The notes under the pieces were generated by a model. It saw only the letters and a list, made by a program, of their open reading frames with translations, was not told the origin of the DNA and ran no database searches. Positions 4,471-64,000 of a DNA stretch of 64,000 bases are shown one piece after another. The translations under genes were made by a program, and so were the position numbers. This stretch comes from Myxococcales bacterium (lineage in GTDB: Bacteria > Myxococcota > Myxococcia > Myxococcales > UBA5297): positions 18,407 through 82,406 of the forward strand of contig JBNKEI010000033.1 in the NCBI GenBank assembly GCA_050288705.1, read 5' to 3'. The number at the start of each line of letters is the position of its first letter. The first letter of the stretch is position 1.

Positions 4471-4510
4471 GACATTCTCCTTCAGCAAGTGGGACGTCGC
4501 CCAAGATTAC

Positions 4511-4852: not shown

Positions 4853-4866
4853 AATTTCCTTTCCTC

Positions 4867-5154
4867 TTACTTCCCGGCAACTTTGGCTTTCTTTTCGCCA
4901 GAGTGACCGTGAAACGTACGTGTTGGCGCGAATTCACCAAGCTTGTGCCCTACCATATTCTCGGTCACAAACACTGCAACGAATTTTCGACCGTTATGCA
5001 CCATAAACGTACAACTTACAAATTCAGGCAGAATGGTCGACCGGCGACTCCATGTCTTTATTGTTCGATTTTTGGCATTAGAACCTACTAATTCCTCGAC
5101 TTTTCCAACAAGGCTCTCGTCGGCAAACGGTCCCTTTTTAAGCGAGCGCGCCAT
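4867..5154 (-). CDS. rpsS: 30S ribosomal protein S19
   Basis: [15 protein letters not shown]...[29 protein letters not shown]. Confidence 0.97.
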
Positions 5155-5181
5155 TTTCTCTTACCTTACCTTTCCAACTCG

Positions 5182-6030
5182 CTACCTCGCTCGACCGCGT
5201 GCACCACGCCGTCGTTGCGAGACGATGAACTTATCAGTGCGCTTATTAGTGCGCGTCTTTAACCCCTTGGTTTTCTTCCCCCAAGGCGATACTGGATGAG
5301 GATTTCCCTGACCGGATTTCCCTTCACCACCACCATGAGGATGATCGACCGGATTCATAGCTAAACCGCGAACTGTCGGGCGCTTTCCCAACCACCGTGT
5401 GCGACCTGCTTTACCTAAGCGCACGATTTCATTCTCAACATTTCCTACTTGCCCAATGGTAGCTCGACATCCGACCAGAACTTTTCGTACTTCGCCAGAA
5501 GGCACCCGGATCTGAGCATAACGCCCCTCCTTAGCCATAAGCTGTCCCCAGCTTCCAGCAGAGCGAATCATTTGCGCGCCGCATCCTGGCTTTAGTTCCA
5601 CATTGTGGACTACTGTTCCTACCGGTATGCTCTTCAAGGGCAGACAGTTACCAGGACGTATATCAGCATCTTCACCGGATACAAGGGAATCGCCTACTTT
5701 GATACCCAACGGGGCTATAATATATCGCTTTTCCCCATCCACGTAGTGCAGCAGAGCCAACCTAGCAGTCCGGTTGGGATCGTACTCAATATGCGCTACT
5801 CTTGAAGGAACACCATCTTTTTCACGCTTCCAATCAATAATTCGAAAGCGCCGCTTGTGCCCGCCACCAATATGCCGGGTAGAAATGTGGCCATGACTAT
5901 TCCGACCACCAGTTTTTCGAATCGATTCGGTAAGCGACCGCTCTGGACGCATACGAGTTACTTCTGAAAAATCTGCCGCCGAGCAAACTCTTCGACCAGC
6001 ACTAGTTGGCTTGTATTGCTTAATAGGCAT
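5182..6030 (-). CDS. rplB: 50S ribosomal protein L2
   Basis: 282-aa [17 protein letters not shown]...[13 protein letters not shown]. Confidence 0.98.
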
Positions 6031-16199: not shown

Positions 16200-19100
16200 C
16201 TAGGCCAATGTTCCCGTCTTCTTGACTTGCTCTCCAGAAGTAGAAGTGTCACCACTCTCGCCTGGCGTAGGAGCAGTCTCAAGCAATTCAACATCTAGAG
16301 CAAGTGACTGCAGCTCTTTTATCAGCACATTGAAGCTTTCTGGAAGACCACTTTCCAACACATTGTCGCCTTTAACAATCGCCTCATACATTCGAGTCCG
16401 GCCAACTACATCGTCGCTCTTCACGGTTAAAAATTCCTGCAACGAGTAGGCTGCACCATATGCTTCCATGGCCCAAACTTCCATTTCCCCTAGACGTTGG
16501 CCTCCGAACTGCGCTTTTCCTCCTAGGGGCTGCTGGGTCACTAGCGAATAAGGCCCAATAGAGCGAGCATGAATCTTTTCATCAACCAGGTGATGCAGCT
16601 TTAGCATGTACATCACACCAACAGTGACATCCTGATCGAAGGGCTCACCTGTCCGGCCATCGAATAATATCTGTTGACCGCTCAGACTTTGTTTGCTGGC
16701 CTTTAAAAGGTCATCGATTTCAGACTCCCTTGCCCCGTCGAAAACCGGCGTCGCTACATGAACACCTTTGTGTAGCCTCCTACAAAGGTTAAGAACCTCA
16801 CTATCCCCAACTTGATCAATTAACTCGTGAAAATTTTGCTCACGATAATGCTGCTTTAATTCTTTGCGCAACAGCTCCGGAGCGTAATTCTCTTGAACCA
16901 GACGATCGAGTTGCTCTCCAAGCGAGCGAGCACCCCACCCAAGATGAGTTTCCAGGATCTGACCAATGTTCATTCGACTAGGAACACCTAGCGGATTTAA
17001 CACAATGTCTACTGGCCGACCATCAGCCATATAAGGCATATCTTCCTCGGGAAGAATCCGAGAAACCACGCCCTTGTTTCCGTGACGACCAGCCATCTTG
17101 TCGCCAACCGCTAATTTTCGCTTGATGGCGACATAAACCTTTACCATCTTAATGACGCCCGGAGGAAGCTCGTCACCCTTCTTCAAACGGCTAATCTTTT
17201 CGCCAAATACCAGCTTGACGACTTCACGCTGCTCTTCGAACGAACTGATGATTTTTCGAACGTTCTCCTCTACTGGACTTTCTATAGCAATTTCCACCCA
17301 ATATTTATGAGGAATATTATCGAGCACCTCATCAGTAAGAACATCGTCCTTCTTCAAGAGCTGCCTGCCACGATCATCAATCAGCTTGGCCAAAGCAGCC
17401 TTGCCTACCAGCAACGTCCGCACTCTCTTGTAGGCCGAGTCCTGGAGAATCTTGATTTCGTCATTCTGATCTTTAAGCAGCTTAGCTTCTTCTTGGCTCT
17501 CAATCTCTTTAGCCCGCTCATCCTTATCAACGCCCTTGCGACTAAATACTTTAGCATTGATTATGGTACCAGTAACGCCGGGCGGAACCCGCAACGAACT
17601 ATCACGAACGTCGCCGGCTTTCTCACCAAAGATTGCTCGCAGTAATTTTTCTTCGGGTGAGAGCTGGGTTTCTCCTTTAGGCGTAATTTTGCCAACCAGA
17701 ATATCCCCTTGCTTCACCTCAGCGCCAATGCGGATAATTCCGGACTCGTCTAAATCTTTGAGCGCCTCTTCTCCAACATTGGGTATATCTCGAGTAATTT
17801 CTTCTTTGCCCAGCTTAGTATCGCGAGCAATACATTCGAATTCCTCAATGTGGATAGATGTAAAGTTGTCTTCCTTAACCAAACGCTCGCTGAGAAGAAT
17901 TGAGTCTTCGAAATTATATCCTTGCCAAGGCATGAAGGCTACAACCACGTTTTGACCTAACGCGAGTTCGCCAGTCTCAGTTGCAGGACCGTCAGCAATT
18001 ACATCGCCTTTCCTTACTCGGTCACCTTTCTTAACGATGGGCTTTTGGTTAATGCAAGTATTCTGATTGGATCGCTGATATTTAATCAGATTATAAATGT
18101 CAACCTCCGATCCGACATCAGAAGCCACCGTGTCTGCCTTAACAACTATGCGCGAAGCATCAACCAAGTCGACCTCACCGTCACGCCTGGCCACTAAGCA
18201 CACGCCGGAATCCCGGGCGACAATGCCTTCAATTCCTGTCCCTACCAACGGAGCTTGGGTTCTCAGCAAAGGAACTGCCTGCCTCTGCATGTTGGATCCC
18301 ATAAGAGCGCGGTTGGCATCATCATTTTCCAGAAATGGAATCAGTGATGCTGCAACTGAAACTAGCTGAATTGGCGAAACATCCATCAGATCGACGTCTT
18401 CAGTTTTTACCTGAACAGTCTCTCCACCGCGACGAGCAGAAGCCAAGGACCCAGTCAGTATTCCTTCTTGGTCGACTTCGGCGTTAGCTTGAGCAATAGT
18501 ATGCTTCTCTTCTTCCAGCGCTGAATAAAATGCTACATTATCAGTCATCTTACCGACTTCTACTTTTCGGTAAGGCGTTTCCACAAACCCGTATTCATTC
18601 ACTCGCGCATAAGTAGAAAGTGACGCTATGAGACCAATATTAGGACCTTCCGGCGTCTCAATTGGACAAATCCGACCGTAGTGAGTACCATGAACATCGC
18701 GCACTTCGAAGCCTGCTCGCTCCCTGGTTAGCCCTCCAGGACCTAGAGCGGACAATCGTCGTTTATGGGTTACCTCAGAAAGAGGGTTAGTCTGATCCAT
18801 GAACTGAGACAATTGGCTCGAGCCAAAGAACTCCTTAATCACTGCAGTCACGGGCTTGGCATTGATCAAATCGTGAGGCATCAAGGTTTCGATTTCCTGC
18901 AGGCTCATGCGCTCACGAATTGCTCGCTCCATTCGAACCAAGCCAATTCGGTACTGGTTCTCCAGCAGCTCGCCAACCGCTCGCACACGCCGGTTACCCA
19001 GATGATCGATATCGTCGATTTCACCTTTGCCATTTTTGAGATCAACTAAATAGCGAATGACTTCAAGAATATCTCGTTTGGTCAAAACCGCATGCTCTAA

Positions 19101-50666: not shown

Positions 50667-52526
50667 ATGCGCAGATACATTTCTGGGTATGCCCCGCTAG
50701 GCGGTCTTTTGGCATTAGCCCTGGTATTTTCCGGATGTAACGGAGGAGGAGAAGAAGAATACGAAATTCCAGTAATGGCTCCCGATCCATTAGCTGCCGA
50801 TTATCCTGGTCTCGATGAGTTATCGCGGCCTATTACCGCATTGTCCGCTGCTTGTACTTGGGCCTCCACGGGGTCAGGAACAGTAACGATTACTGTTGAT
50901 GATGGGGAAACCGCCATAGTAAGCAGAAATACCGCCGGCACAATTTTTGTAAACAGTCAGACTTGTACTGGCTCGGGCACTACCGCAACCAGCAGCAATA
51001 CTAAAATTATTAATATTTCTTCCCAAGCAGCTAACGAAAGCGAAACTGTAATCATTGATTACTCCTTTGGAACCTTTGGTCTGGGTACTACTACCGCCGG
51101 TACTACTGGTATTCGCATTGATTTAGGAACTAGTGGAACTGATGCGGTTAAAATACGTGGTAGTGAAAATGCCGATAATTATTCCTTGGGCAAAGATACT
51201 TATTACTACATTGCGGCAAATACTGACAGCTATCCCGATGTTGTCATGCTTAATACCCCAGACACCATTGTGATCAGTGCTGGCCCGGGCGCTGACCGGG
51301 TTTATGCGGGCGGTGGTTATGGAACCGGCAATGCGGTAGACATGACCCTCACCATTTATGGTGGTGAAGGAAATGACACCCTTACTGGCGGTACTGCCGC
51401 AGATACCATAAAGGGCGGCACTGGTAATGATTTGATTACCGGCAGCACTGGCGATGATTCGCTATACGGTGAAGGCGGAAACGACACTTTTGGCGAAGGA
51501 AGCTCTAATAGCGGGACTGACTATTTCTCTGGCGGCGATGATACCGATACGGTTGATTACTCTTCCCGCACCCTCGCGCTAACCATATCGATAACCGGTA
51601 CTGGCGCATCTGGTGTTTCCGGAGAAAACGACAATATTCAGACTAACGTAGAAAACGTCAAAGGCGGAAGCGCTGCCGATGTAATCACTGGAAGCAGCTC
51701 AGCAAATACAATTTATGGTTACGCAGGAAACGACACCATATACGGCAAAGCAGGAGACGACAGTCTTTATGGTGGCGATGGCAATGATACTTTTTATGAA
51801 GACGGCACTGAACCTAATGGTTCTGACGTGATTAGTGGCGACGGCGGCACTAGCGACTTAGTGGACTACACTTCGCGAACGGGAGCACTAACTATCACCA
51901 TTAACAACACTGCGAACGACGGTGAATCCGGCGAGAATGACAACATCATGACCACGGTAGAGCACGTAAAAGGATCTACTGTTGGTGACACCATCACTGG
52001 AAGCAGCTCCGACAACACCATCTGGGGTTACGCAGGCAATGACACCATCGACACGGGTTCCGGTGCGGACGTTATCTATGGCGGCTTAGGCGATGATGTT
52101 CTGACTGGCGGATCCGGCGATGATACCTTCTACGAAGAAGGCTCGGGAACCAATGGCGCTGATACCTTTAACGGTGGAACTGGTGTCGATACGGTGGACT
52201 ACACTTCGCGTACTGCGGCAGTAACGGTAACCATGGACGGCGCAGCAGCTAACGACGGTGAAAGCTCCGAGACCGATGATGTAAAGGATGACGTAGAGCG
52301 ACTCAATTGTCCCACTGGCTCTTACGTCTGCACTGTAACCGGTAATGCCCTGAGAAATGAGATTACTGGCGGCGACGGCGATGATGTCTTAACTGGCGGC
52401 GACGGTGATGACATCTTAGACGGCGGCGCTGGCGACAATTGGCTCGCTGGCGGTGACGGTGACGGTGATGTCTGCTTTAGTAGTCCCACCGGCACCACAG
52501 GCACCGAGACTGGTTGCGAGCTATAG
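50667..52526 (+). CDS. RTX-repeat (hemolysin-type Ca-binding beta-roll) lipoprotein, paralog 1
   Basis: Signal peptide with lipobox VFSG-C. Many GGxGxDxL/I nonapeptides arranged in three ~95-aa modules. GGGAG SD. Confidence 0.85.
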   Translation: MRRYISGYAPLGGLLALALVFSGCNGGGEEEYEIPVMAPDPLAADYPGLDELSRPITALSAACTWASTGSGTVTITVDDGETAIVSRNTAGTIFVNSQTCTGSGTTATSSNTKIINISSQAANESETVIIDYSFGTFGLGTTTAGTTGIRIDLGTSGTDAVKIRGSENADNYSLGKDTYYYIAANTDSYPDVVMLNTPDTIVISAGPGADRVYAGGGYGTGNAVDMTLTIYGGEGNDTLTGGTAADTIKGGTGNDLITGSTGDDSLYGEGGNDTFGEGSSNSGTDYFSGGDDTDTVDYSSRTLALTISITGTGASGVSGENDNIQTNVENVKGGSAADVITGSSSANTIYGYAGNDTIYGKAGDDSLYGGDGNDTFYEDGTEPNGSDVISGDGGTSDLVDYTSRTGALTITINNTANDGESGENDNIMTTVEHVKGSTVGDTITGSSSDNTIWGYAGNDTIDTGSGADVIYGGLGDDVLTGGSGDDTFYEEGSGTNGADTFNGGTGVDTVDYTSRTAAVTVTMDGAAANDGESSETDDVKDDVERLNCPTGSYVCTVTGNALRNEITGGDGDDVLTGGDGDDILDGGAGDNWLAGGDGDGDVCFSSPTGTTGTETGCEL

Positions 52527-52594: not shown

Positions 52595-52631
52595 GCGAGG
52601 CCCGCCTCCTAAGGTGGGCTTCGCCTTTTTT
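52595..52631 (+). terminator. Rho-independent terminator between the RTX paralogs
   Basis: GCGAGGCCCGCC-tcctaa-GGTGGGCTTCGC (12-bp stem with two G:U) followed by CTTTTTT. Confidence 0.75.
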
Positions 52632-52655
52632 CAAACCTTTGTCTTAGGAGAGAAC

Positions 52656-54509
52656 ATGGACCGATTTCTTTATTCCCTGATCTCACTGGCTAGTAAGATC
52701 AGCTCTCTCCTGTTGCTTTTTTCTTTGGCTGCTTGCAATGGAGAACCAGAAATTATTCCCGAAAAAAAAGCCACTCTTCCATTTCATGAGTCTGGCGGAA
52801 TAACGGAACTAGAACAGCCGCTCAACCCTCTACATAATGGCGCCTGCTCTTGGTCTTCCACTAATGGCGGTACCATTACGGTAAACCTGCAAAGCGGAGA
52901 AACAGCAGTTCTTTTTCGTAATTCCTCGGGAACATTTTTTTTGAATGGAGAAACTTGTACTGGTTCTAGCACTACTGCAACCACTGGCAACACTCGCACC
53001 ATAAACATTGCCGCAGAAACCACTGACGGAGATGAAACCGTCATTCTTGATTTTATACCGGGAATTTTTGGCACTGGCAGCTATGCCTCTCCTGGTATTA
53101 CTGTTAACTTAGGAACCAGCGGAAATGACGCTTTCAAAATCCGCGGCTACACCAGCGCCGATTACATTACCTTAGGAAAATCTGGCTCGGTAACCTCCAT
53201 AGCCCTTAATGCCGATAATTATGCAGACGTAGTTTTTTCCGGAACGGTGCCCCCTTTTACTTTTAGTTTAGTTGAAGGAAATGACCGATTCTCCGCAGCC
53301 GGTGGATATGGAACCGGAAGCAGCGCCTATGACGTAGCCCTAACCATCTATGGCGGCCCAGGAAACGACACTGTTATCGGAGGGTCAGCCAATGACGTTA
53401 TTTATGCTGGGGAAGGAAACGATACCCTTCAGGGAGGATTAGGCGATGATTCCCTATACGGAGAAGAAGGCGACGACTATTTTCAGGAAGGCAGCTCTTC
53501 CAACGGCGCTGATTTCATGTCCGCAGGTAGCGGCACTGATACCGTAGACTATTCGTTGCGAACTGCTTCGGTAACTATTGTGCTCGACGGAGTGAGCAAC
53601 TCTGGACAAAGCGGTGAGAACGACATTTTGGACTCAGCTTTTGAAAATGCCTATGGAGGAAGCGGAGACGACACCATTACCGGAAATAATTCTTCCAATT
53701 TGCTCAAAGGCAATGGAGGCAACGACATTATTTACGGCAAGGCGAATAACGATCTTCTGTACGGTGGTGATGGAAACGACACTTTTATGGAAGAAGGCCT
53801 CGGCCCCAACGGAGCAGACAGTTTTTATGGCAACGCGGGCATTGATTTAGTTGATTATTCTTCTCGTACCGGAGCTTTAACTGTAACCATTAACAGCGCC
53901 CTAGCCAGCTCGGGAGAGTCAAACGAAAAGGACCGAATTCTCTCTGATGTGGAGAATATTAAAGGCGGCTCGGCCAATGACACCATCACTGGCAACTATG
54001 GCGATAACACCATTTGGGGTTTAGGAGGTAACGACATTATTAAAGGGGGTTCGGGGAGTGATGTGATTTACGGAGGGCTCGGAAACGACTCTCTCGCGGG
54101 AGAAGCGGGCGACGACACTTTTCTTGAAGAGGGCCCTGTTTCCAATGGAAGCGACGAATTCCATGGCGGAACCGGCACCGACACCGTGGATTACACCTCG
54201 CGCACTGCCAGTTTGACGGTTACCATGGACGGTACAGAAGCTAATGACGGAGAAACCGGCGAAAACGATAACGTCAAAGACGACGTAGAAAGACTACTTT
54301 GCCCTACCGCGAATTATGTCTGTTTGGCCACCGGCAATAGCAAGAACAACGAAATGGTTGGGGGAACGGCCAACGATTCTTTTGACGGCGGAGATGGCGA
54401 CGACACTTTAGACGGAGCCGGGGGAGATAATACGCTTGACGGCGGAGACGGCGATGGCGACTTCTGCATGAATTGGGGGGCAGGCACTACTGTACGCTGC
54501 GAAATGTAA
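52656..54509 (+). CDS. RTX-repeat lipoprotein, paralog 2
   Basis: The ATG at 52656 follows a TAGGAG SD; the track GTG at 52614 lies inside the terminator. Lipobox LAA-C. Same module organisation as paralog 1. Confidence 0.85.
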   Translation: MDRFLYSLISLASKISSLLLLFSLAACNGEPEIIPEKKATLPFHESGGITELEQPLNPLHNGACSWSSTNGGTITVNLQSGETAVLFRNSSGTFFLNGETCTGSSTTATTGNTRTINIAAETTDGDETVILDFIPGIFGTGSYASPGITVNLGTSGNDAFKIRGYTSADYITLGKSGSVTSIALNADNYADVVFSGTVPPFTFSLVEGNDRFSAAGGYGTGSSAYDVALTIYGGPGNDTVIGGSANDVIYAGEGNDTLQGGLGDDSLYGEEGDDYFQEGSSSNGADFMSAGSGTDTVDYSLRTASVTIVLDGVSNSGQSGENDILDSAFENAYGGSGDDTITGNNSSNLLKGNGGNDIIYGKANNDLLYGGDGNDTFMEEGLGPNGADSFYGNAGIDLVDYSSRTGALTVTINSALASSGESNEKDRILSDVENIKGGSANDTITGNYGDNTIWGLGGNDIIKGGSGSDVIYGGLGNDSLAGEAGDDTFLEEGPVSNGSDEFHGGTGTDTVDYTSRTASLTVTMDGTEANDGETGENDNVKDDVERLLCPTANYVCLATGNSKNNEMVGGTANDSFDGGDGDDTLDGAGGDNTLDGGDGDGDFCMNWGAGTTVRCEM

Positions 54510-54686: not shown

Positions 54687-55091
54687 CTATAATTCGATGA
54701 CCCAGTTTTCTACCAACAGACCCTCAATTCCAGAGAAATCTTTCATATTATTGGTTACCAGAATTAGTTTTTGCGAAATTGCATGCGCAGCAATGAGCGT
54801 ATCAAAGCGATGACGGCCAAGATGGACACCTTTAATGCGCAAATCACCGTAGCTACGTGCCGCCAAAGCATCAAATTCCAAGGCAGGGAGGAGTTGCAGG
54901 AGTCTGTCCAATTGATTACGCCTTTTAGTAGCTAGCTTGGGCTCGCTACCAACGCCATGTTCCAACTCGGCTAAGGTGATTGTAGATATTCCTGCATCGC
55001 CCACACGCAGTTTCTTAAATCGCTGCACAACCGAAGGAGGCTGATATTTCATTAGGTAGATACAAATGTTAGTATCAAGAATGTAGTTCAC
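54687..55091 (-). CDS. vapC: VapC PIN-domain toxin
   Basis: (M)NYILDTNICIY...TLAELEHG...LVTNNMKDF pattern, 134 aa from a GTG that overlaps the vapB stop (GTGA). The track ORF is over-extended to 55259. Confidence 0.88.
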   Translation of the reverse strand: MNYILDTNICIYLMKYQPPSVVQRFKKLRVGDAGISTITLAELEHGVGSEPKLATKRRNQLDRLLQLLPALEFDALAARSYGDLRIKGVHLGRHRFDTLIAAHAISQKLILVTNNMKDFSGIEGLLVENWVIEL

Positions 55092-55318
55092 CAGTCGCGC
55101 TCCGGTTCCATCCCTTCCTCTCTTCCCTGTGCCATGTAATCGGGATCGAAACCAGAAAAAACCTCTAGAACTTGTTCGAGCGAACCTTCTGCTGGTCTCA
55201 CCACAAGGTGGTCCCCTTCGCGAAAAAGTTCCACTGCGGTTCCCGGCACTGCCGGCCACAATTCCCGGGGAATTCTAACTGCAAGCGAATTTCCACTTTT
55301 GAATAGTGTGGTCCTCAT
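55088..55318 (-). CDS. vapB: VapB antitoxin (AbrB/SpoVT-type)
   Basis: MRTTLFKSGNSLAVRIPREL swapped-hairpin N-terminus, AGGAGG SD. Confidence 0.88.
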   Translation of the reverse strand: MRTTLFKSGNSLAVRIPRELWPAVPGTAVELFREGDHLVVRPAEGSLEQVLEVFSGFDPDYMAQGREEGMEPERDW

Positions 55319-55439: not shown

Positions 55440-55928
55440 TTACCCCCCGTTTGTATCGTCAGGATCAGGAGGAACTTTTCCTTCTCTCCAGGTACACAAG
55501 TTATTTACACAGTCTGGCACCACATAACAGTCTGGCTCTTTAGATTCAGGAGGACACCGTGGGCAAAATATGTCAGCCATGCACCGACTAACCGGAGCAT
55601 AGCGATTCATTTCTACTTTGGCCTCATATTTAAAAGCTTCCAAATTCGCAGAGTTAATTAAGGCTTTATTACAAAACTGAATAGAGGAATTACTTTCTAG
55701 CTCCACGGGAAGGCAATCAGCCGGAGCATTGCAGGACGCATATTTAATAGTAATCTCATTCATTGCACATTGAAAAGCATCTAAACCTTCGCATTGCAAA
55801 ACAGAATTAACACAGCCGGGATAGCTGTAAACCGGTCTTCTTTCACTTTCCGGCGAATCACAGCCAAAAATGCCACCAGCGAGTAGTACCCCGAAAATAG
55901 AAGCTACCCAGTAAAACAATTTGTGCAT
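55440..55928 (-). CDS. Cys-rich lipoprotein of unknown function
   Basis: Signal peptide with lipobox IFG-C and about a dozen further cysteines in 140 mature residues. I recognise no family. Confidence 0.6.
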   Translation of the reverse strand: MHKLFYWVASIFGVLLAGGIFGCDSPESERRPVYSYPGCVNSVLQCEGLDAFQCAMNEITIKYASCNAPADCLPVELESNSSIQFCNKALINSANLEAFKYEAKVEMNRYAPVSRCMADIFCPRCPPESKEPDCYVVPDCVNNLCTWREGKVPPDPDDTNGG

Positions 55929-55970: not shown

Positions 55971-56657
55971 TTAAGTGGCTTTCTTTCCCGACGAGTTAAA
56001 AGAGTAAACATCTTTTACCGCAACATTACGATAACGTTCATATTTTAAGTGCATATTTGAAAGCAGCCAAATAAAAGCGCGTTGGGTTTTATAAGAAAAA
56101 CAACCAGCTTGTTCTTTTATGAGCATAATTTCTCTAATGATATTTTTTTTTGCTTCCGGCGGATGATAACAAAACGCTGGCGAAAACATGTAATTTCCTT
56201 TTATAGGAACAAGTCGGGCCTCAATCAGGTCCCCTTTGCGCAGCCCCACTGCTTTTCGACGTTCAAAAACATTTATATCCTGATCGGTGAAACAATCGCG
56301 CAACCTAATCGTTGGCACCGTTATCTTTTGTACTTCATATAGCGAATGCAGAGTTCTGGTGAAACCGCGAAATACCTCCCACTCTTCGTCTGATATCCTC
56401 GATACATTTGATACCCTGGTCGTAAACTCTTCCAAAAAAAGTTGTGCAGGGGTTTTGCCCTCTAAAAGAAGAAAATCAAAAATAAAAAAATCGATAAAAC
56501 CAGCCATGCGCATCTCAAAAGAACGATCATCTTCGAATATTTCGCCAGTGGACGCAAAATATTCTGCCTTTGCCGCCAAAAGCTGCTCTTTAAATCGTGC
56601 TCCTCCGACAAAAGCGATCACCTCTTCTAACTGAGCATCGTACACGTTAAACCCCAT
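55971..56657 (-). CDS. Hypothetical protein (228 aa)
   Basis: Long ORF 15 nt downstream of pyrC on the same strand. I recognise no motif. Confidence 0.55.
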   Translation of the reverse strand: MGFNVYDAQLEEVIAFVGGARFKEQLLAAKAEYFASTGEIFEDDRSFEMRMAGFIDFFIFDFLLLEGKTPAQLFLEEFTTRVSNVSRISDEEWEVFRGFTRTLHSLYEVQKITVPTIRLRDCFTDQDINVFERRKAVGLRKGDLIEARLVPIKGNYMFSPAFCYHPPEAKKNIIREIMLIKEQAGCFSYKTQRAFIWLLSNMHLKYERYRNVAVKDVYSFNSSGKKAT

Positions 56658-57962: not shown

Positions 57963-58159
57963 GGGGCTCCTTCAAGTGACCGAAAAATTATTTTCAAACG
58001 AAATGAGCATCGCAACAACTCTAGGCTTCGGAGTTTAATCCTGGGTACAAATAATTATCAGAAACAGTGGCATTTAAAAAAATAAATAAACGAGCAACCC
58101 GCCCTAGCCTACTTGATAATTAGTGGGTCGATTACAACAATTTCTCACCCGCGCCCAAG

Positions 58160-59989
58160 TCACAGAGAAGCAACCAGGCCGAGCAACTCTTCACGCTCGC
58201 GAGAGAGGCCATTAACATCGTCACGCAAGCGGCTTTTCCATGGCTCGGGCAGATAATTCAAATGGTTGGTATAAAGAACTGCTTCCAGAGTTTGTAGTTG
58301 CTGTTTAAGCATCGATCCTTCGGGAACAAAAGATTCGGCCTCTTCTATAAAAACTCGCAAATCAACAATTACATTTTGATCTTCTCGAGCAAATCCGCTA
58401 GCTCGACGGGCTCGTCTTCGCGAACGATTACCAATAAGCTCCAGAGCTGCGGGGGTAAAAAAACCGAGGACTGCAAACAGTTTCTTTAACTCATCGTCAG
58501 TTGGCATATTAGTACTCTGCGGACTAGCGGCCAACGATGCAGATTCCAGCGAAATCAATCGAATTCCACAACTTTCACAAACCGCTTTCAGTACTGCTTT
58601 TTTTTCGGCAAAGGTTTCCGGAGCCAATATTGGCAAATGCTCCTCCACCCTGCCAGGGCGACCAGTATCGGGCGCCAAATTGAATGGCCTCGCCGTCAAT
58701 AACATCCAAAAAATTTTTCCCCGGTATTCCGGGTCACCCATAAAGGCAGTAAAGGCTCCAAAAACCCGCTCATCGACTTTGTTGCCGGCGTCGCTGCGCT
58801 CATTACCCAGAGTCTTATCAGCTTCATCGATCATCACAATATTGGGGGTCATGGCTTTTAAAATATTAAAAATAGTATCAAGGTTACTTTCAGTCTGCCC
58901 TACATACATTCCTCGAAAATTGCGCAAGGACACTGCATTTATTCCCGCATCATGAACAAACGCCTTGGCAATAAAAGTCTTACCAACACCGTTGGGGCCA
59001 GGGCAAACCACTCCCACTGGGACGTCTGGACGACCATCCCGCAAATCTTGAGCAGTGTCTTTCAAAAAAGATTTAATAGCGTCGTTTCCACCTACTGCAT
59101 CCAAGCCATGATGGGAAGAAAGAATTTCCAACATTCCTCGGCTGTCACGGGATATTAATTCTCTTTTCCGCGCGCTAACGTAATTAATGGTCAAGATGCG
59201 CTCCGCAGAGTGAAGCGCACGCAAAAATAAATGCCGGATTCCTGTTAAAGTTAGCCCAGCAGTCAATTCCACTAACTGCGTTTCGGTAATGTTCATTGCC
59301 AGGCTTTCACCATTTTCCACTACCAGCTTAGCCTGTTGCCAACGCAGAAATCGTGCTCGTTCTTCCGCAGTAGGACGAGGAACATCAATAGTTGTTACTA
59401 GCTCACTTCTAACCAAATCGGGGTGAAGATTATGTATTTGCGAAGTAAAGGCAAAGCAAACTGCCTTTCTTGCCCCAGAGTCCTGCAGCCGCTCGTAAAA
59501 CATTTGCGCGAACCGCTGCAAAGTAACCGTATTAATACGATCAATTTCGGTCATCGATTGGGGATCGCCATTTGGCGCCAAGTGCTCGGCATAATCAAGC
59601 ACTAGGGCAACCGGGCGTTGGGAACACTCAATCCCTACAATAAAAGCTTCAATAAACGCCAATGCGCGAATACTCTCCTTAGGAAAATCGAAAACACTAC
59701 GAATTATTCTTTGCCCGGGCGGAAGATTTTGGTTGGCTAAACCAACAAATTCTTCCGCGTCCTTAGTGTTTTGAAAGCGCATTCCTCTTGATACGTCGTA
59801 ATACACAATAATGAATCCGCTTTTTAGCAACATACTTTCTACATAAGCGCGGCCACTCACATACTCTCCCCCAAGTGGAAAGAGATCACTAATATTGTTG
59901 TGCAAAACAAAAAAAGCTGATTCGCAGCGGGAATAAGAATCGCGAAAAGCTTGCGCCCAAGGAGTATAAGTGGCTTGACTAGCGGTCAT
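58160..59989 (-). CDS. Classical-clade AAA+ ATPase with an N-terminal P-loop-less AAA-like module
   Basis: Walker A GPNGVGKT (residues 331-338), Walker B IVMIDEAD (384-391), SRH-like LLTARPFNLAPDTGRPGRVEE. Residues 1-300 lack a P-loop but contain ALVLDYAEHL and IDVPRPTAEERARFL AAA-like blocks. ATGA overlap with the upstream gene. Confidence 0.85.
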   Translation of the reverse strand: MTASQATYTPWAQAFRDSYSRCESAFFVLHNNISDLFPLGGEYVSGRAYVESMLLKSGFIIVYYDVSRGMRFQNTKDAEEFVGLANQNLPPGQRIIRSVFDFPKESIRALAFIEAFIVGIECSQRPVALVLDYAEHLAPNGDPQSMTEIDRINTVTLQRFAQMFYERLQDSGARKAVCFAFTSQIHNLHPDLVRSELVTTIDVPRPTAEERARFLRWQQAKLVVENGESLAMNITETQLVELTAGLTLTGIRHLFLRALHSAERILTINYVSARKRELISRDSRGMLEILSSHHGLDAVGGNDAIKSFLKDTAQDLRDGRPDVPVGVVCPGPNGVGKTFIAKAFVHDAGINAVSLRNFRGMYVGQTESNLDTIFNILKAMTPNIVMIDEADKTLGNERSDAGNKVDERVFGAFTAFMGDPEYRGKIFWMLLTARPFNLAPDTGRPGRVEEHLPILAPETFAEKKAVLKAVCESCGIRLISLESASLAASPQSTNMPTDDELKKLFAVLGFFTPAALELIGNRSRRRARRASGFAREDQNVIVDLRVFIEEAESFVPEGSMLKQQLQTLEAVLYTNHLNYLPEPWKSRLRDDVNGLSREREELLGLVASL

Positions 59990-60873
59990 GACCTAGTCCT
60001 TCGAGATACGCGATTTCTACGCGAATTCTTATTACCAACAATTTCATCACAAGCCTCTCCCGCTGCCCTTAATCTGGCTTGCAGTTCCGATACATCGCTT
60101 ACCGATGCAACTCCGCCTATGGCTACGTCGGCTTTGCGTAATTCCATGGCCAGTTTGAATTCCTGCAAATTTTTTTCGATTACGGTAAGCACCGAGCCAA
60201 TTTGCTTCTTTTTATCTTTAGCTGCCCGCCATTGTAGAAGAGTACGTTCGGTAGATTCTTTGGCTTCCAGCAGCGCATCGCGCACCGTTCCCGGCTCGGT
60301 CCGCTTTTCTTCTTCTTGGATACGTTGAAGCTCAGCTTCCAGCCAAGCTCCGTCAGAAGCTTGAATGATACGTTCCAACCTGCCATGCAGCTTTACTAAC
60401 TGAATAGCGCGGTCGCGCAAATCTGCTAAATCCGGCCGAGAGGATTGCATCATGGCTTCTACTGAATCATCAATTCCATCCAAAAAAACTGCTTCAATGG
60501 TGCGATGATGATAGAGAATTTTTTCCAACCCCAAACGCACTTCCGGAGCTGCTGATTGTAAAATACCTACCAGCTCACGGGTGGACTTGTCCTGTACCTG
60601 CTTTGATGCCTCTTGTTGTAATTGCTTTACTAGATTTTGATCCAATCCAGCGGTTACGTAATAGCCATACAGAACCACTCCTAAACCCGCTACAAACCCC
60701 CCCAAGGCAATACCCAAATCGGACCCCAGTGCGGATGATCCTCCTACTGCAATAGCTGCTCCCAGAGCGCTGGGAATACCAAATACATGTAAAAACCGTT
60801 GGCGCCAGCGAAAACAAGACTTCAAGCGCTCACGCCAACCAGGAATATAAGGAGAGGTCACGTCCACATCCAA
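59986..60873 (-). CDS. Membrane-anchored all-helical protein (two N-terminal TM segments + ~210-aa helical cytoplasmic domain)
   Basis: Gly/Ala-rich hydrophobic stretches GIPSALGAAIAVGG and IALGGFVAGLGVVLYGYYV, followed by heptad-like helices. The start is uncertain (TTG 60873, GTG 60867 or 60861). Confidence 0.7.
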   Translation of the reverse strand: MDVDVTSPYIPGWRERLKSCFRWRQRFLHVFGIPSALGAAIAVGGSSALGSDLGIALGGFVAGLGVVLYGYYVTAGLDQNLVKQLQQEASKQVQDKSTRELVGILQSAAPEVRLGLEKILYHHRTIEAVFLDGIDDSVEAMMQSSRPDLADLRDRAIQLVKLHGRLERIIQASDGAWLEAELQRIQEEEKRTEPGTVRDALLEAKESTERTLLQWRAAKDKKKQIGSVLTVIEKNLQEFKLAMELRKADVAIGGVASVSDVSELQARLRAAGEACDEIVGNKNSRRNRVSRRTRS

Positions 60874-60885
60874 GTAGGAACCTTT

Positions 60886-62508
60886 TTATCTATCCCCACA
60901 ATTAAAAAGACGGAATTCTGTTCGCCGACTAGCATCAGCGTCTTCTGCTCCGTTTTTCAACACCAGACGCTCAGAGCCAAAACCGCGAACATCAAATCTC
61001 GAATCAGGAAAGGCCTTACTATCAATTTCGTGCAACACCTGCACAATAGCTTTGGCTCTCGCTTCGCTTAACCTTTTATTCAAAGCGGCATTCCCACTTG
61101 AACTAGTATGTCCATAAACGCGCACACAAAGAGCTGGAAATCCTTTTAATTGCTCAGCAATTCCCACCACGATGCTCCGCCCGTTTGCATCTAAAGACCA
61201 TTTACCATCGCCAAAATAAATATTGGGAAGTTTTAGAGTTCCCACATCGGCGGTAGTATCGTGCTTAGCTTTTTCTGCGTTATAGGAGTAAGTTTTTTCC
61301 TTTACACTCAGCTTAGGCGCACGTACTTCGGTTTGTTTTCCTGCTACTTCCGCTGCTAATCTCGCTTTTTCTTCTAGTCGTGATTTTATTGCAACTAGAA
61401 AACTATCATTTAAAATATTGGACGCATTAGGTAAATCCGATGCGCTCACTTTGTTTTTTGCAACTAGTAATCTTCCGGTTTTGGTAATACGCTCCATCAT
61501 TTTGGCAGGAGTGCCGCATTGCCCCCACCATAAACAGGCATTTTCTTCATAGTTCAAAAAGTCAATACCCGAAAGAACTGCTTCACCCAGCTTGGTTTCC
61601 CCTCCACAGTCTGCCCCACAATCAGCAGTAATAAATTGAGCATGGGCAGCAGGGTCATTTCCATAGTTGCCGATAACCTTGAAATAGGCGCTGGCTAATT
61701 GCTGCAACGTTTCTCTTTCCTGAATTACAAAGTCACGGTTAGCTACTAAAACGTCTATAATTACGTCGTCGGCTTGCCCACCGGTAGCAAAAACTTTAGG
61801 AAATCCTTCTTTCTCCGCCAAAGCAGTAAAAGGCTGCCAGAGCACCGCTACTTGCACCTTTCCTTGCTTTAGTTTTTCCCAACAATCTTTTGCCACCACG
61901 CCGTTATCGGTAGAAAGGTCTTCGAGTGCTGAAAAAGAAAGACTAGCGAAATCCCAAAGATGCTCGCTGGGGGTGCCGGTGGAATAACAAACTCTATCGC
62001 TTCGTTTTACTTCGTCGAAACTGCTTTTTCCTTTTTGCAAAAATATGGCGTCACCACCATTGGATTCATCAATATTCCAAAGTATAACTCCAGGGTAAAT
62101 GCCATCTTTTTTATTTTTTGCTCCATGTTGAAGAAAAGCATCTACTGTAGTTAATGCAATATCTATTTCGCCATCAGCCAATGCTTTCATCCGCTCGTAT
62201 TGATCGTAATATTTTTCGTCATCAATATAATCAATTCCGATTTCGGACTTTGCTAGCTCCTCAGCCAAGCGGGGTTCATTACGAAAAGTGCTGTACCCTG
62301 ACCAGGGATCACCCGCAATCTTAATAATTTTTTTAAATTTTTTACCGCTTAACGAGGTAGAGCTATTCAAAGCTTTTTCTTTATACTTTTCTTGAATAAT
62401 CGGCTGAACAAATTTCACCCAACCAAAATATCCCGCTGCTCCCAATATAACTAATGGAATTCCAATTCTAAGCAGTGGGCCGGGACGCCCATTCGAACTT
62501 TGTGACAT
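60886..62508 (-). CDS. Membrane-anchored periplasmic protein: NMT1/SsuA-like solute-binding fold fused to an OmpA/MotB-like peptidoglycan-binding domain
   Basis: N-terminal TM IGIPLVILGAAGYFGW. A binding-protein-like region (IAGDPWSGYSTF...DIALTTVDAFL...). C-terminal YFGDGKWSL...VYGHTSSSGNAALNKRLSEARAKAIVQVL...RRTEFRL OmpA_C-like block. The ATG at 62508 follows an AGGAG SD. Confidence 0.8.
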   Translation of the reverse strand: MSQSSNGRPGPLLRIGIPLVILGAAGYFGWVKFVQPIIQEKYKEKALNSSTSLSGKKFKKIIKIAGDPWSGYSTFRNEPRLAEELAKSEIGIDYIDDEKYYDQYERMKALADGEIDIALTTVDAFLQHGAKNKKDGIYPGVILWNIDESNGGDAIFLQKGKSSFDEVKRSDRVCYSTGTPSEHLWDFASLSFSALEDLSTDNGVVAKDCWEKLKQGKVQVAVLWQPFTALAEKEGFPKVFATGGQADDVIIDVLVANRDFVIQERETLQQLASAYFKVIGNYGNDPAAHAQFITADCGADCGGETKLGEAVLSGIDFLNYEENACLWWGQCGTPAKMMERITKTGRLLVAKNKVSASDLPNASNILNDSFLVAIKSRLEEKARLAAEVAGKQTEVRAPKLSVKEKTYSYNAEKAKHDTTADVGTLKLPNIYFGDGKWSLDANGRSIVVGIAEQLKGFPALCVRVYGHTSSSGNAALNKRLSEARAKAIVQVLHEIDSKAFPDSRFDVRGFGSERLVLKNGAEDADASRRTEFRLFNCGDR

Positions 62509-62600
62509 CAATGTCTCCTAAATCCTCCTGCAATCTCCCAACAAAACCAGCAGAATGGACGCATTAGTTTTTTCGCATCTACAGACAGTTAACCAGCTAG

Positions 62601-63353
62601 CTAGCCAATTCCTGGTTTGTTTTCGGTCGCGCGCACGCCGGAAGTTGAAGAATCAGCGCCTGCTTGTTGGCGAGCTTCTAGCATGGCCTGAAATTTTGAT
62701 TTACTAGCACTTACTCGCACTTTTTCTCGAAGCTGACGCCGTTTTTCGTCGCGAGTTGCTCCCGACATTTCGTCAGAAATGTCTGCCTGCGCTGCAACCG
62801 AATCAATATACTTATCGATATCAGCAACTGCCCCCTCCTCGGATGCGGTACTCATTCCACTCATCATATCGTTAAAGGACTTGCGCGCCTGAGCTGACTG
62901 TAACTTGGCGATCATTGCGTCGCGTTTGGAACCCATTTGTTTAGTGCGCGACTCTAAATCACGTAGCTTAACCAAATAATCGGACACCATTTTTTCGGAA
63001 TTAACCAACTCGGAACGCAGGTGATTCAACTCTCCGTCCAGCGCCTCTTTTTCGTTTAGTAGGTCTTCGCCCAATTCTTGCGCCTCGACATTTCCGGCCT
63101 CAGCCTCCCTTAAGGCGCCCTCTAATTCCTCTTCCGCCTGTCTGAGTTGCTTGGATTTCTGCTCCACCATTGACCTAAGCTTGTTGCGCTCGGCAGCTAA
63201 ACGGCCTACCGCGGTCTGCATTTTCTGATATTGGTCTTTCATTTTGTTAATGGCCATCTCGTAAACTGCTTCTGGATTAGACTGTTCCAAACTACGTTGC
63301 CCTTGCCAGAACAGCCCTTTTACGAAGTTCATAAACCTTCCCACTACGCTCAT
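62601..63353 (-). CDS. pspA: PspA/IM30 (Vipp1/ESCRT-III superfamily) protein
   Basis: N-terminal GRFMNFVKGLFWQGQRSLEQSNPEAVYEMAINKMKDQYQKMQTAVGRLAAERNKL aligns with E. coli PspA FSRFADIV...EDPQKLVRLMIQEMEDTL. Coiled coil throughout. AGGAGG SD. Confidence 0.88.
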   Translation of the reverse strand: MSVVGRFMNFVKGLFWQGQRSLEQSNPEAVYEMAINKMKDQYQKMQTAVGRLAAERNKLRSMVEQKSKQLRQAEEELEGALREAEAGNVEAQELGEDLLNEKEALDGELNHLRSELVNSEKMVSDYLVKLRDLESRTKQMGSKRDAMIAKLQSAQARKSFNDMMSGMSTASEEGAVADIDKYIDSVAAQADISDEMSGATRDEKRRQLREKVRVSASKSKFQAMLEARQQAGADSSTSGVRATENKPGIG

Positions 63354-63454
63354 CTTAATCCTCCTAACTCAACGTCCACGATCCGTCGATCCCATTGGAC
63401 AACTTGGGCGGGTTTGTAAATTGACCTGCCTTAATAGCGATATTGTTGTATTAT

Positions 63455-63994
63455 TTAGGTCGAGTTGGAAACCACCTTTCCAAAAAATTCCCGAGCAGCC
63501 TGTAAGCGTGATTCCTCTACCAAGCAAGCTTTGCGCAGCCCTTCCAAAGAGCGATTAATGTTTTCCATTCTCTGGCGATGCTCTTCGATTTTTTGAGTTA
63601 ATATATCGATTTCTGCTTGTTCCTGCTCAAGGGCTCGGGCTATTTCTTCCTCTTTGCTCCTCATCAACCCTCGCACCCGCTTAATCTTACGTTCCGCATC
63701 CTCTAAAACTGCTTCTCGGCCTTTTCCAATGGCTCCTAAAAATGCTTCCGCGGCAGCGATTTTTGATCCTTGGGGAAGCGAAGCGTCCAACCGGCTCAAA
63801 AATGATTCTAACTGTTCCACTTCATCGGTATTAGGAATTCCCGCCAAATCGTACTGCTCTTGAAAATCAATGACTACCTCCCCCGTTTCGTCGGTAGCTA
63901 TTTCGATGGTTTCTGCAGAAACAAGATCGGCCGGTCCCGGAGGAACCGCAAATTCACTTCCTGATAATAGTGCCGCAAATTCATCATCCCCCAA
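63455..63994 (-). CDS. Acidic N-terminus + coiled-coil protein (possibly 5'-truncated by the window edge)
   Basis: The ORF is open to position 64000, and the listed start is a TTG. The C-terminal ~90 aa are heptad-rich (KRVRGLMRSKEEEIARALEQEQAEIDILTQKIEEHRQRMENINRSLEGL). Confidence 0.6.
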   Translation of the reverse strand: MGDDEFAALLSGSEFAVPPGPADLVSAETIEIATDETGEVVIDFQEQYDLAGIPNTDEVEQLESFLSRLDASLPQGSKIAAAEAFLGAIGKGREAVLEDAERKIKRVRGLMRSKEEEIARALEQEQAEIDILTQKIEEHRQRMENINRSLEGLRKACLVEESRLQAAREFFGKVVSNST

Positions 63995-64000
63995 CTCATC

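Follow-up and report, generated by a model that had tools for sequence, protein, structure and literature searches.

Operons of the type "PspA -> PBPB+OmpA -> ... TM+Snf7 -> inactive-AAA+AAA" were listed by Ravi et al. (2024, mSystems 9:e00847-23; PMC11237479), with OGG56892.1 of Candidatus Handelsmanbacteria and AA314_08174 of Archangium gephyra as examples. In the Handelsmanbacteria operon a permease and an ABC ATPase directly follow the PBPB+OmpA gene and no separate substrate-binding protein (SBP) is present; in the Archangium variant the ABC ATPase/permease are located outside the operon core (PMC11237479). The occurrence of a protein combining a binding-protein and an OmpA-like domain (SBP-OmpA) within a PspA/Snf7/AAA+ operon has therefore been published, by comparative genomics, since 2024. 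The paper contains no family-level analysis of this protein.

The stretch of DNA analysed here (the window, 64 kb) carries an operon with the same gene order: a gene called X, PspA, a protein with a signal/TM segment, a binding-protein domain and an OmpA domain, an anchored helical protein, and an AAA+ ATPase of which the C-terminal module alone is recognisable. Unlike the long form of the published operon, it has no permease or ABC ATPase, and unlike the Archangium gephyra protein, which lacks an OmpA domain, its SBP-OmpA protein has one. The features are the following.

63455..64000, minus strand: X, the first operon gene; cytoplasmic coiled-coil protein, truncated where the window ends; full length 215 aa, from an identical public contig (L007)
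62601..63353, minus strand: PspA/Vipp1 (IM30, ESCRT-III superfamily), 250 aa; Pfam PF04012, E 1.2e-13
60886..62508, minus strand: SBP-OmpA gene, 540 aa, stop codon included; N-terminal anchor, NMT1/TauA-like SBP domain, linker and OmpA_C domain
62407..62511, minus strand: residues 1-35 of SBP-OmpA; short tail with a GRPGP-LT-G-P motif, predicted to be cytoplasmic, and a single hydrophobic helix (hydropathy, conservation)
61408..62331, minus strand: SBP domain, residues 61-368, with the fold of type II periplasmic binding proteins (NMT1/SsuA/TauA group; Foldseek, profile matches)
61243..61407, minus strand: linker, residues 369-423; Lys/Glu-rich helix, then a less ordered spacer (secondary structure and pLDDT of the model)
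60904..61242, minus strand: OmpA_C-like domain, residues 424-536 (Pfam); R485 kept, canonical Asp replaced by Ser470
59986..60873, minus strand: 2-TM helical partner, 295 aa; basic N-tail, Gly/Ala-rich two-helix hydrophobic hairpin (about residues 27-73) and a long all-helical domain, predicted to be cytoplasmic
58160..59989, minus strand: AAA+ ATPase, 609 aa; C-terminal module of the classical Cdc48/VCP/Afg2 type (Pfam AAA, residues 331-452, E 4e-24)
58088..58104, minus strand: terminator-like hairpin with a T-run, 56 bp past the AAA+ stop codon; a pattern match, such sites in the region being no more frequent than by chance

Architecture and conservation of the SBP-OmpA protein

If a TTG is read as the start, the open reading frame spans 60886..62511 (minus strand, 541 aa), and the residue numbers in this text, which are counted from it, are higher by one than those counted from the ATG. 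The start codon is likely the ATG at 62508, with AGGAG in front of it; a public protein 100% identical to the resulting 540-aa product exists (P0001), and the coordinates 60886-62508 given by an earlier, sequence-only reading of this DNA agree with the ATG start. That reading had also divided the protein into four parts (one N-terminal hydrophobic helix, a binding-protein region, a Lys/Glu-rich linker and an OmpA_C block), and this architecture was found with Pfam, the AlphaFold model (pLDDT 86.8, pTM 0.82), Foldseek and hydropathy taken together. The fusion itself had been called unusual, which it is not: NMT1-like binding proteins joined to OmpA form a large family with 694 representatives of 50%-identity clusters. 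Among the best 149 of these, 116 are at least 480 aa long, the OmpA domain was present in 10 of 10 sampled representatives, and nearly all of the approximately 700 clusters carry it.

A Kyte-Doolittle scan gave one hydrophobic segment, residues ~13-35, which sits inside the long helix H18-50 of the model. Ravi et al. label this segment 'SIG', a cleaved signal peptide being the alternative to an anchor. The GRPGP-LT-G-P motif of the tail is 88-95% conserved, compared with about 30% in the juxtamembrane stretch, and because of this conservation the anchor is probably kept uncleaved. In variants of about 800 aa a signal peptide, a further domain and a further TM segment are added, which would give the same outside orientation and so supports a periplasmic location of the protein. 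Given this orientation, the presence of the OmpA domain, and eight cysteines that are invariant across both Polyangia clades, we infer that SBP-OmpA is a periplasmic protein anchored in the inner membrane. The putative disulfide pairs of the cysteines, placed from strand ends and helix starts, would be Cys175/210, 298/302, 326/332 and 462/538.

The binding-protein fold of the middle region (~61-368) was recovered in both structure and family-profile searches. The best Foldseek match of the model in the PDB was TauA (6ssy, E 1.9e-14, target TM 0.82), followed by SsuA (3ksx, TM 0.78) and then by PqqT, ThiY and Thi5, and the family profile matched SsuA of E. coli (E 3.5e-4) and TauA (E 8e-3). Domain annotation with Pfam succeeded in part: the OmpA_C domain scored above its cut-off, but the search with the window protein alone gave no match to an SBP family. 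NCBIfam SsuA_fam matched it below threshold (E 1e-4, 21.7 bits; cut-off 163.5), and some relatives do reach Pfam NMT1_2 or NMT1. Judged by these profiles, the window protein is a homolog of the curated NMT1/SsuA families and not a member of them. Some homologs bear the NCBI name 'phosphate ABC transporter substrate-binding/OmpA family protein'; this name was rejected, the fold matching TauA/SsuA/NMT1 and not PstS.

The putative ligand cleft, whose positions were deduced from the locations of strand ends and helix starts and not from model coordinates, is conserved. Across 108 family representatives with a median identity of 28%, D68, G72, Y73, G152, D154, P181, S182, W225, P227 and D253 are each found in at least 105. 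W225 aligns with Trp176 of TauA and D253 with Asp205, both of which are ligand contacts by crystallography, and Asp205 also by mutagenesis. The mapping onto TauA is confined to these two residues, the N-lobe contacts Gln30, Gly61, Gly79 and Glu106 having no mapped equivalents. The likeness to TauA and SsuA thus covers the fold, a detectable sequence relation and the Trp176/Asp205 equivalents, and, for SsuA, a Ser at a helix start that matches its GSSSH region. The differences are an identity of 12-15%, the membrane anchor, the fusion to OmpA, the lack of permease and ATPase in the operon, and four extra invariant acidic residues, D68, D124, D148 and D154. With these residues, a simple sulfonate or phosphate is a less likely ligand. 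An amine-bearing ligand is probable, given the acidic and aromatic character of the predicted cleft and its retention of the Trp176 and Asp205 equivalents.

The linker was modelled as a helix (370-390) followed by a stretch of lower confidence, in agreement with its description as Lys/Glu-rich, and its conservation is 0.54 versus 0.76 in the SBP domain. The C-terminal block matched Pfam PF00691 (residues 432-528, E 1.4e-14, score 54.7 bits, cut-off 27.2) and OmpA-like domains in the PDB (E 1e-8 to 1e-9), the best being YiaD (2k1s) and T6SS anchor domains; the best NCBIfam matches of the protein were OmpA-type anchor lipoproteins. With the anchors YiaD, YfiB, TssL/TagL and MotB/PomB it shares the Pfam OmpA domain and the N-x2-L-S-x2-R-A motif, the Arg of which (R485) never varies within the Polyangia clades and is shared by 106 of the 108 representatives of the family. 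It differs from them in the large SBP domain between anchor and OmpA and in the replacement of the Asp that contacts diaminopimelate (DAP). In A. baumannii OmpA the DAP contacts are Asp271 and Arg286 (PMC5974059). The window protein has GHTS where solved domains have GHTD or GYTD, with Asp in all five of those aligned, so that the canonical position is Ser470 here, Asn in most orthologs and S, G, R or A family-wide. The C-terminal domain is predicted to bind peptidoglycan, which is not assured because of this replacement.

These data bear on a mainly structural role, in which SBP-OmpA would be an inner-membrane-peptidoglycan tether (YiaD, MotB-type, TagL-like) and the SBP fold would act as a spacer or bind a wall or protein component, not a free small molecule. 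The conserved OmpA domain and spacer, the resemblance to anchor lipoproteins, and the close paralogs in unrelated contexts described below are all in keeping with it. We nevertheless consider it improbable, since near-invariant strand-end and helix-start residues at such low overall identity, among them the TauA contact equivalents, are the signature of a small-molecule site, and the missing canonical Asp weakens pure anchoring. It is very improbable that SBP-OmpA is a stator subunit of the MotB/ZorB kind, or a component of anti-phage defence, that works with an ion-conducting partner. The basis for this reading is the 'TM + OmpA-like' layout, which resembles MotB, and matches of PADLOC ZorB models to the OmpA-like part (E 1e-7) and, weakly, of IetA to the AAA+ protein (E 1e-6). 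The PADLOC matches are restricted to the generic OmpA and AAA cores, and the defence reading was rejected for this reason. The stator reading was rejected as well: none of 40 sequences has an Asp or Glu in residues 13-35 of the anchor, there is no partner of the MotA/ExbB/ZorA type, the 2-TM neighbour having no such family match, and stators have no counterpart to the 310-residue SBP domain.

The five-gene operon and its conservation

All five genes lie on one strand. They are separated by 101, 89 and 12 bp, the last gap being that between the stop codon of SBP-OmpA and the 295-aa partner, which in turn overlaps the start of the AAA+ gene by 4 bp. The hairpin at 58088..58104 is likely the end of the unit in this genome. 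The window ends 6 bp past the listed start of X, and the region upstream of the operon was therefore viewed through orthologous loci. No TM segment was seen in X by hydropathy, and it matched no Pfam or NCBIfam family; it is located upstream of PspA in every orthologous locus.

For PspA, the profile of the orthologs matched Vipp1/PspA structures at E 2.5e-8. The N-terminal amphipathic segment is conserved, R6, F7, N9, F10, G13, L14, F15 and W16 being invariant. The AAA+ protein matched Afg2, VAT and Cdc48 in the PDB (E 1e-28) over residues 323-475 only; no match was found for the N-terminal ~320 residues, which are compatible with a degenerate module. The model of the 295-aa partner (pLDDT 83.6) is all helical, and its hairpin was assigned from hydropathy. 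The family of this protein occurs only with the same SBP-OmpA clade, and it occupies the operon position of the published 'SIG+TM+Snf7' gene. The Snf7 assignment of Ravi et al. was not reproduced here by three approaches: hhalign against the PspA ortholog profile gave a probability of 0.2%, the partner profile searched against PDB sequences gave spurious haemagglutinin coiled-coil matches alone, and Foldseek gave nothing significant (best E 0.024; CdvB2 0.34, Vipp1 0.54).

The expectation that orthologs would be found next to PspA/AAA+ genes was borne out. Among species-representative genomes, 16 loci encode a homolog with 64% identity or more, and every one of them has the order X, PspA, SBP-OmpA, 2-TM helical protein, AAA+; the order recurs in 21 metagenome loci and in the JGI loci L001-L003. 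The linkage is a strictly conserved operon and not a coincidence. Close paralogs with 55-62% identity and the same motifs occur outside any PspA context, so SBP-OmpA can apparently work without PspA/AAA+.

ABC transporter genes in and around related operons

The sequence-only reading had noted that no ABC permease or ATPase gene is adjacent, and this was found to apply to the whole window: phmmer probes detected no ABC ATPase, no BPD-type permease and no second NMT1-type SBP in the 64 kb. There is likewise no ABC gene inside the block in any of 37 orthologous operons. The Polyangia system has shed the ABC transporter of the operon. In the surroundings of the orthologous blocks, an ABC ATPase ORF was seen just upstream in one metagenome locus (L044), and one lies downstream on the opposite strand in four loci. 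At two loci of Polyangia paralogs (L028, L023) an SsuB-like ATPase is adjacent.

Distant homologs of SBP-OmpA (~30% identity, 27-34%) are encoded in a VWA/TelA operon, where a complete ABC importer of the NMT1 type adjoins them. Operons with the order VWA, SBP-OmpA, 2-TM helical protein, TelA, NMT1-type importer were found in beta/gamma-proteobacteria, Desulfobacterales and many metagenomes. They resemble the window operon in the cleft motifs of the SBP-OmpA homolog, in its position directly before a protein with the layout of the 295-aa partner (hhalign probability 72%), and in their neighbours, which include a soluble helical stress protein and, in many cases, a classical AAA+ gene. They differ in having TelA in place of PspA, in encoding a VWA protein as well as a complete importer equipped with an SBP of its own, and in the lack of the eight cysteines from the SBP-OmpA homologs. 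The importer's own SBP is soluble and accompanies the anchored SBP-OmpA, to whose cleft its own is related but not identical; since the importer brings this free SBP, the anchored protein appears to be an extra. We found no description of the TelA/VWA/OmpA/ABC neighbourhood in the literature, which is not proof of novelty as a 2012 Ter-system survey (Anantharaman, Iyer and Aravind) possibly fell outside the search. Orthologs beside ABC genes had been named in the sequence-only reading as one of the observations that would refute it; such neighbours accompany the distant homologs and the Handelsmanbacteria gene from the literature, whereas the orthologs proper do not have them.

These neighbourhoods are the main ground for viewing SBP-OmpA as the membrane-tethered, wall-anchored substrate receptor of an ABC importer, the permease and ATPase of which would be encoded elsewhere in Polyangia. 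The distant homologs always adjoin an NMT1-type importer, an SsuB-like ATPase adjoins some Polyangia paralogs, and the cleft is conserved as in a working SBP. The position of the Handelsmanbacteria gene, directly before a permease and an ABC ATPase with no separate SBP, further suggests that a role in transport is ancestral or at least possible. Against it stand the absence of ABC genes from the window and from the orthologous operons, the free SBP with a non-identical cleft that the TelA-type importers carry, and the fixation of the SBP domain to the wall by OmpA on a spacer of ~55 residues, a position awkward for docking to a permease. We regard such a receptor as unlikely, although it is the strongest of the competitors to a role within the PspA operon. 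The first two of these observations are also what argues for a role other than transport.

Proposed role of SBP-OmpA in the PspA/AAA+ operon

The explanation that we prefer, and to which we give about an even chance, is that SBP-OmpA, tethered to the wall, serves as the subunit that binds a ligand in the periplasm, within a conserved operon of five genes in Polyangia (Myxococcota) for envelope stress (membrane remodelling) that also encodes PspA, a 2-TM helical protein and an AAA+ ATPase. The conserved cytoplasmic tail (GRPGP) and one uncleaved anchor helix would hold the protein in the inner membrane, the NMT1/TauA-type Venus-flytrap domain would close on a small ligand in the periplasm, and the helical spacer would bring the OmpA-like domain to peptidoglycan. 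In the Polyangia clade SBP-OmpA would feed no co-encoded ABC importer; it may report a periplasmic ligand or the status of the wall, fix the position of the machine, or both. On the cytoplasmic face, the 2-TM helical protein and PspA would receive the signal by way of the anchor and tail, and the AAA+ ATPase would remodel the assemblies of these two proteins. Of the earlier interpretation, the architecture, the conserved PspA/AAA+ operon and the lack of ABC genes in the block stood, and the unusual nature of the fusion did not; the proposal of a sensor for a ligand or the envelope state that links membrane and wall may still hold, as may signal transfer to PspA/AAA+.

A more specific version, speculative and rather doubtful in our view, makes SBP-OmpA a transport-independent trans-envelope receptor. 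Closure of the flytrap on a periplasmic amine-type ligand, measured against a wall attachment that stays fixed, would be relayed via anchor and tail to the 2-TM partner and would gate the assembly, or the AAA+-driven remodelling, of an ESCRT-III-like PspA polymer; elsewhere the same pair of receptor and partner would act with TelA.

To our knowledge, only a few of the inputs that tell bacterial polymers of the PspA/Vipp1/ESCRT-III type where and when to act are understood (PspB/C, LiaI/F). The operon is a candidate periplasmic input to PspA-type polymers, as the gene of a predicted ligand-binding, wall-attached protein lies beside those of an anchored helical protein and an AAA+ remodeller. 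These results take a known type of operon a step further and do not describe a system of a new kind. What they add to the single line published before is the loss of the ABC transporter in Polyangia, the conservation over ~700 protein clusters of a binding cleft that seems fit for an amine-bearing ligand, an OmpA domain with a non-canonical wall-binding site, and the pairing of SBP-OmpA with TelA in other phyla. If SBP-OmpA were indeed a transport-independent receptor and worked with its partner and TelA in other phyla, TelA would be a functional counterpart of PspA, and SBP-OmpA with its hairpin-helical protein would be a general input module for membrane-stress machines.

The operon and its products

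Five co-directional, closely spaced ORFs on the minus strand, from 58160 to 64000, make up the operon that contains the gene under study.

ORFs of the operon, from X to the AAA+ gene
63455 to window end, minus strand: X, coiled-coil protein (its length in L007, the identical public contig, is 215 aa)
62601-63353, minus strand: PspA homolog
60886-62511 (TTG start listed), minus strand: SBP-OmpA protein, with an N-terminal anchor, an NMT1/TauA-like binding domain (SBP), a linker and an OmpA_C domain
59986-60873, minus strand: 295-aa protein
58160-59989, minus strand: AAA+ ATPase, 609 aa

From X to AAA+, the genes are separated by gaps of 101, 89 and 12 bp and then overlap by 4 bp. A terminator-like hairpin lies 3' of the AAA+ stop codon, and the next gene encodes a dihydroorotase-like amidohydrolase. 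The start of the SBP-OmpA gene is listed as TTG at 62511. Since an ATG at 62508 is found 7 nt past an AGGAG, and since a public protein that is 100% identical to the product (P0001) has 540 aa, the coordinates 60886-62508 of the sequence-only reading were right. Residue numbers used here are counted from the TTG and are one higher than those counted from the ATG.

Downstream of the dihydroorotase-like gene, ORFs of 228 aa (55971-56657, minus strand) and 162 aa (55440-55928, minus strand; Cys-rich, with a lipoprotein-like signal) had no family match and no counterpart in the orthologous PspA loci. At 54687-55259 (minus strand), the ORF as listed encodes a PIN-domain protein (PF01850, E 3.6e-12) that begins with a long extension rich in Arg and Gly; it may be a toxin of the VapC type whose start was called wrongly. 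Two tandem paralogs of ~620-630 aa with lipoprotein-like N-termini (50667-52526 and 52614-54509, both plus strand) have the calcium-binding nonapeptide repeats of RTX proteins in multiple copies (PF00353, E 1e-40 and 2e-37).

The SBP-OmpA protein has one hydrophobic segment only, at residues 13-35, and an OmpA domain at residues 432-528 (PF00691, E 1.4e-14), both as the sequence-only reading had described them; solved OmpA-like domains of YiaD, OprF, T6SS anchors and A. baumannii OmpA match the protein at E 1e-8 to 1e-9. The middle region gave no Pfam match of its own and was matched by NCBIfam SsuA_fam below threshold only. The NMT1/SsuA-type fold claimed for it was recovered by structure and by profile. 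In a confident AlphaFold2 model built from 40 homologs (pLDDT 86.8, pTM 0.82), Foldseek assigned residues ~61-368 to the NMT1/SsuA/TauA group of type II binding proteins, with matches to TauA (6ssy, E 1.9e-14, target TM 0.82) and SsuA (3ksx, TM 0.78) and with PqqT, ThiY and Thi5 ranking next, and the sequence profile of the binding-region family reached E. coli SsuA (E 3.5e-4) and TauA (E 8e-3). The model continues from the SBP domain through the expected Lys/Glu linker, helical at 370-390, and a less ordered spacer to the OmpA domain.

The description of this fusion as unusual did not hold. Exhaustive phmmer with the SBP region alone matched 694 representatives of 50%-identity clusters, 251 of them at E<=1e-10, and 116 of the best 149 are at least 480 aa long. 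The C-terminal OmpA domain was present in 10 of 10 sampled representatives, several of which reach NMT1, NMT1_2 or Phosphonate-bd models, and some members already go by the name 'substrate-binding/OmpA family protein' at NCBI.

The identity of PspA was confirmed by Pfam and by an ortholog profile against Vipp1/PspA structures (E 2.5e-8). The C-terminal module of the AAA+ protein is of the classical Cdc48/VCP/Afg2 type (E 1e-28); nothing recognisable was found in its N-terminal ~320 residues, and the description 'inactive + classical' in the literature allows for this. A system of PspA, a membrane-anchored divergent Snf7 protein and a two-module AAA+ ATPase was described by Ravi et al. 2024 (PMC11237479), who take the PBPB domain to be the receptor of the linked transporter and the OmpA domain to be the contact with peptidoglycan. 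What the window has is this system with the transporter genes missing. The 295-aa protein, whose family was found with the PspA operon only, starts with a basic tail, which is followed by a hydrophobic hairpin rich in Gly and Ala and by a long domain that is helical throughout. Its assignment to Snf7 was not recovered by hhalign against PspA (probability 0.2%) or among PDB sequences (no match), and the best Foldseek E was 0.024, with CdvB2 and Vipp1 at 0.3-0.5 amid generic helical proteins. The literature searched contained no experimental study of a member.

Gene context of orthologs and distant homologs

Full-length homologs at least 64% identical always lie in the order X - PspA - SBP-OmpA - 295-aa protein - AAA+, as seen in L001-L003, in 16 of 16 species-representative genome loci and, where the contig was long enough, in 21 metagenome loci. 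The finding is real and was correctly described, and the link to PspA and AAA+ is a conserved operon. In many orthologous loci the block continues with a 582-aa protein and a TerB-like protein. Locus L001 has an MscS-like mechanosensitive channel gene upstream and TerB-like and HtrA (trypsin-PDZ) genes downstream (4496-5863 and 16945-18821), which are envelope or osmotic-stress functions; none of the three was found in the window.

The association does not extend to a paralogous Polyangia group, 55-62% identical, which is entirely without PspA operon context, and paralog and PspA-linked ortholog can occur in the same MAG (e.g. JAYTOL01). In L004/L027 (10001-11722) and L005, a 55%-identical paralog follows a PatA_N (PF14332) protein and a 157-aa protein, with FGE-sulfatase and Ser/Thr kinase genes on its 3' side.

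The absence of an adjacent ABC permease or ATPase, noted for the window, was general for the orthologous block, as no ABC gene was found inside it in the 16 genome and 21 metagenome loci or in L001-L003. An ABC ATPase lies past the TerB-like gene on the opposite strand in four orthologous loci and upstream of the block in one, L044. Distant homologs (27-34% identical), in contrast, adjoin such genes. They are spread over beta- and gamma-proteobacteria, Desulfobacterales and a large number of metagenomes, and their TelA-type operon reads VWA - SBP-OmpA - 278-aa protein - TelA - free NMT1-type SBP - permease - ABC ATPase, often accompanied by a divergent classical AAA+ gene. It was found in 8 genome loci and 40 of 80 metagenome loci and is conserved like the PspA operon; no published description was found in the literature searched. 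TelA-type loci are L032, L033, L035, L036, L039 and L079-L122 (e.g. L033:8993-16541); in L033 the AAA+ protein is fused to ankyrin and a second NMT1+OmpA gene lies upstream.

The 278-aa protein (L084:7611-8444 and relatives, alignment A7) has a hairpin-plus-helical layout like the 295-aa protein, and the two profiles gave a moderate match confined to the hairpin (hhalign probability 72%, E 3.5e-5). One member of its family weakly matches PF10112 (XpaC-like; E 0.0097), a family presumably encoded beside a TelA-like gene in Bacillus. Between the free SBPs of these operons and the anchored SBPs, identity is only 16-19%. Since most cleft positions are common to both, with differences at D68, E149, G153, P181 and 226, a ligand class related to that of the anchored SBPs would fit.

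The SBP-OmpA protein could be the receptor for an ABC importer encoded elsewhere, an explanation that we consider possible but rather unlikely. A Handelsmanbacteria operon keeps it in play, as does the scope of the ABC search, which covered the window and the homologous loci. A non-transporter role is favoured because the operon is without a transporter and because, in the distant systems, the transporter has its own SBP.

Proposed topology, ligand cleft and putative wall-binding site

Three lines of evidence led us to propose that the SBP and OmpA domains lie in the periplasm on an uncleaved anchor. In 40 sequences, the motif GRPGP-LT-G-P before and within the hydrophobic segment is 88-95% conserved and the juxtamembrane stretch after it only ~30%; n-regions of signal peptides normally lack conservation of this kind, so that an uncleaved anchor is predicted. 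Both Polyangia clades have eight invariant cysteines (175, 210, 298, 302, 326, 332, 462 and 538) that none of the distant homologs has, and these probably form four lineage-specific disulfides, as would fit an oxidising, periplasmic compartment. A DCGxDC motif is among them. In variants of ~800 aa, the SBP-OmpA body is preceded by a signal peptide, an additional N-terminal domain of ~250 residues and one more TM segment with a loop rich in Arg, additions that would give the body the same orientation. These variants (P0079, P0082, P0086, P0092 and P0115; L006:10001-12391; L024) stand outside the PspA context. A MotB/ZorB-like or defence component appears highly improbable, given an anchor TM without an acidic residue, no channel partner and PADLOC matches that were generic only.

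Conservation of the cleft was assessed in 108 full-length representatives (median 28% identity across the SBP region). Some cleft motifs had served as search patterns for loci; the counts are free of this bias because the representatives came from whole-domain phmmer. In the model, near-invariant residues would face the interdomain cleft from the ends of strands and the starts of helices: D68 (105/108), G72 (108/108), Y73 (107/108), G152 (106/108), D154 (108/108), P181 (107/108), S182 (105/108), W225 (107/108), P227 (107/108) and D253 (108/108). Position 70 is aromatic in all 108, and D124, D148 and E149 are present in most. By HMMER alignment, with the numbering offset verified at Leu204/Asp205 and Trp176, W225 aligns to TauA Trp176, which lines the pocket, and D253 to TauA Asp205, the hydrogen-bond partner of the taurine amine; without this Asp, affinity drops 10,000-fold (PMC6906117). 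The helix start (T/S)-P-S-(E/H)-H aligns to SsuA GSSSH. So acidic and aromatic a cleft suggests an amine-bearing or cationic ligand over phosphate or a plain sulfonate. Its conservation also weakens the explanation of the protein as mainly a structural tether, which we regard as improbable.

The putative wall-binding site departs from that of all solved OmpA-like domains aligned, having GHTS (GHTSS, residues 468-472, window 61096-61110) in place of GHTD/GYTD. In A. baumannii OmpA, Asp271 and Arg286 bind diaminopimelate (PMC5974059). The Arg is kept (R485, 106/108 representatives), and the canonical Asp position holds N or S in Polyangia and S/G/R/A elsewhere in the family. With the Arg retained and the Asp replaced, peptidoglycan binding is plausible but not assured, and its mode may be non-canonical.

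Proposed role of the SBP-OmpA protein

The best supported reading, to which we give roughly an even chance, is that the SBP-OmpA protein would be the periplasmic, wall-tethered ligand-binding subunit of a stress module of PspA, a helical membrane protein and an AAA+ ATPase, and that in the Polyangia clade its part would be sensing or positional anchoring rather than that of a receptor for a transporter. The literature and NCBI naming already cover the architecture and the operon type, and the family is large. What is new is incremental: the transporter-less Polyangia form, the conserved acidic and aromatic cleft with its mapping onto contacts of TauA, the non-canonical OmpA site and the TelA-type sister system.
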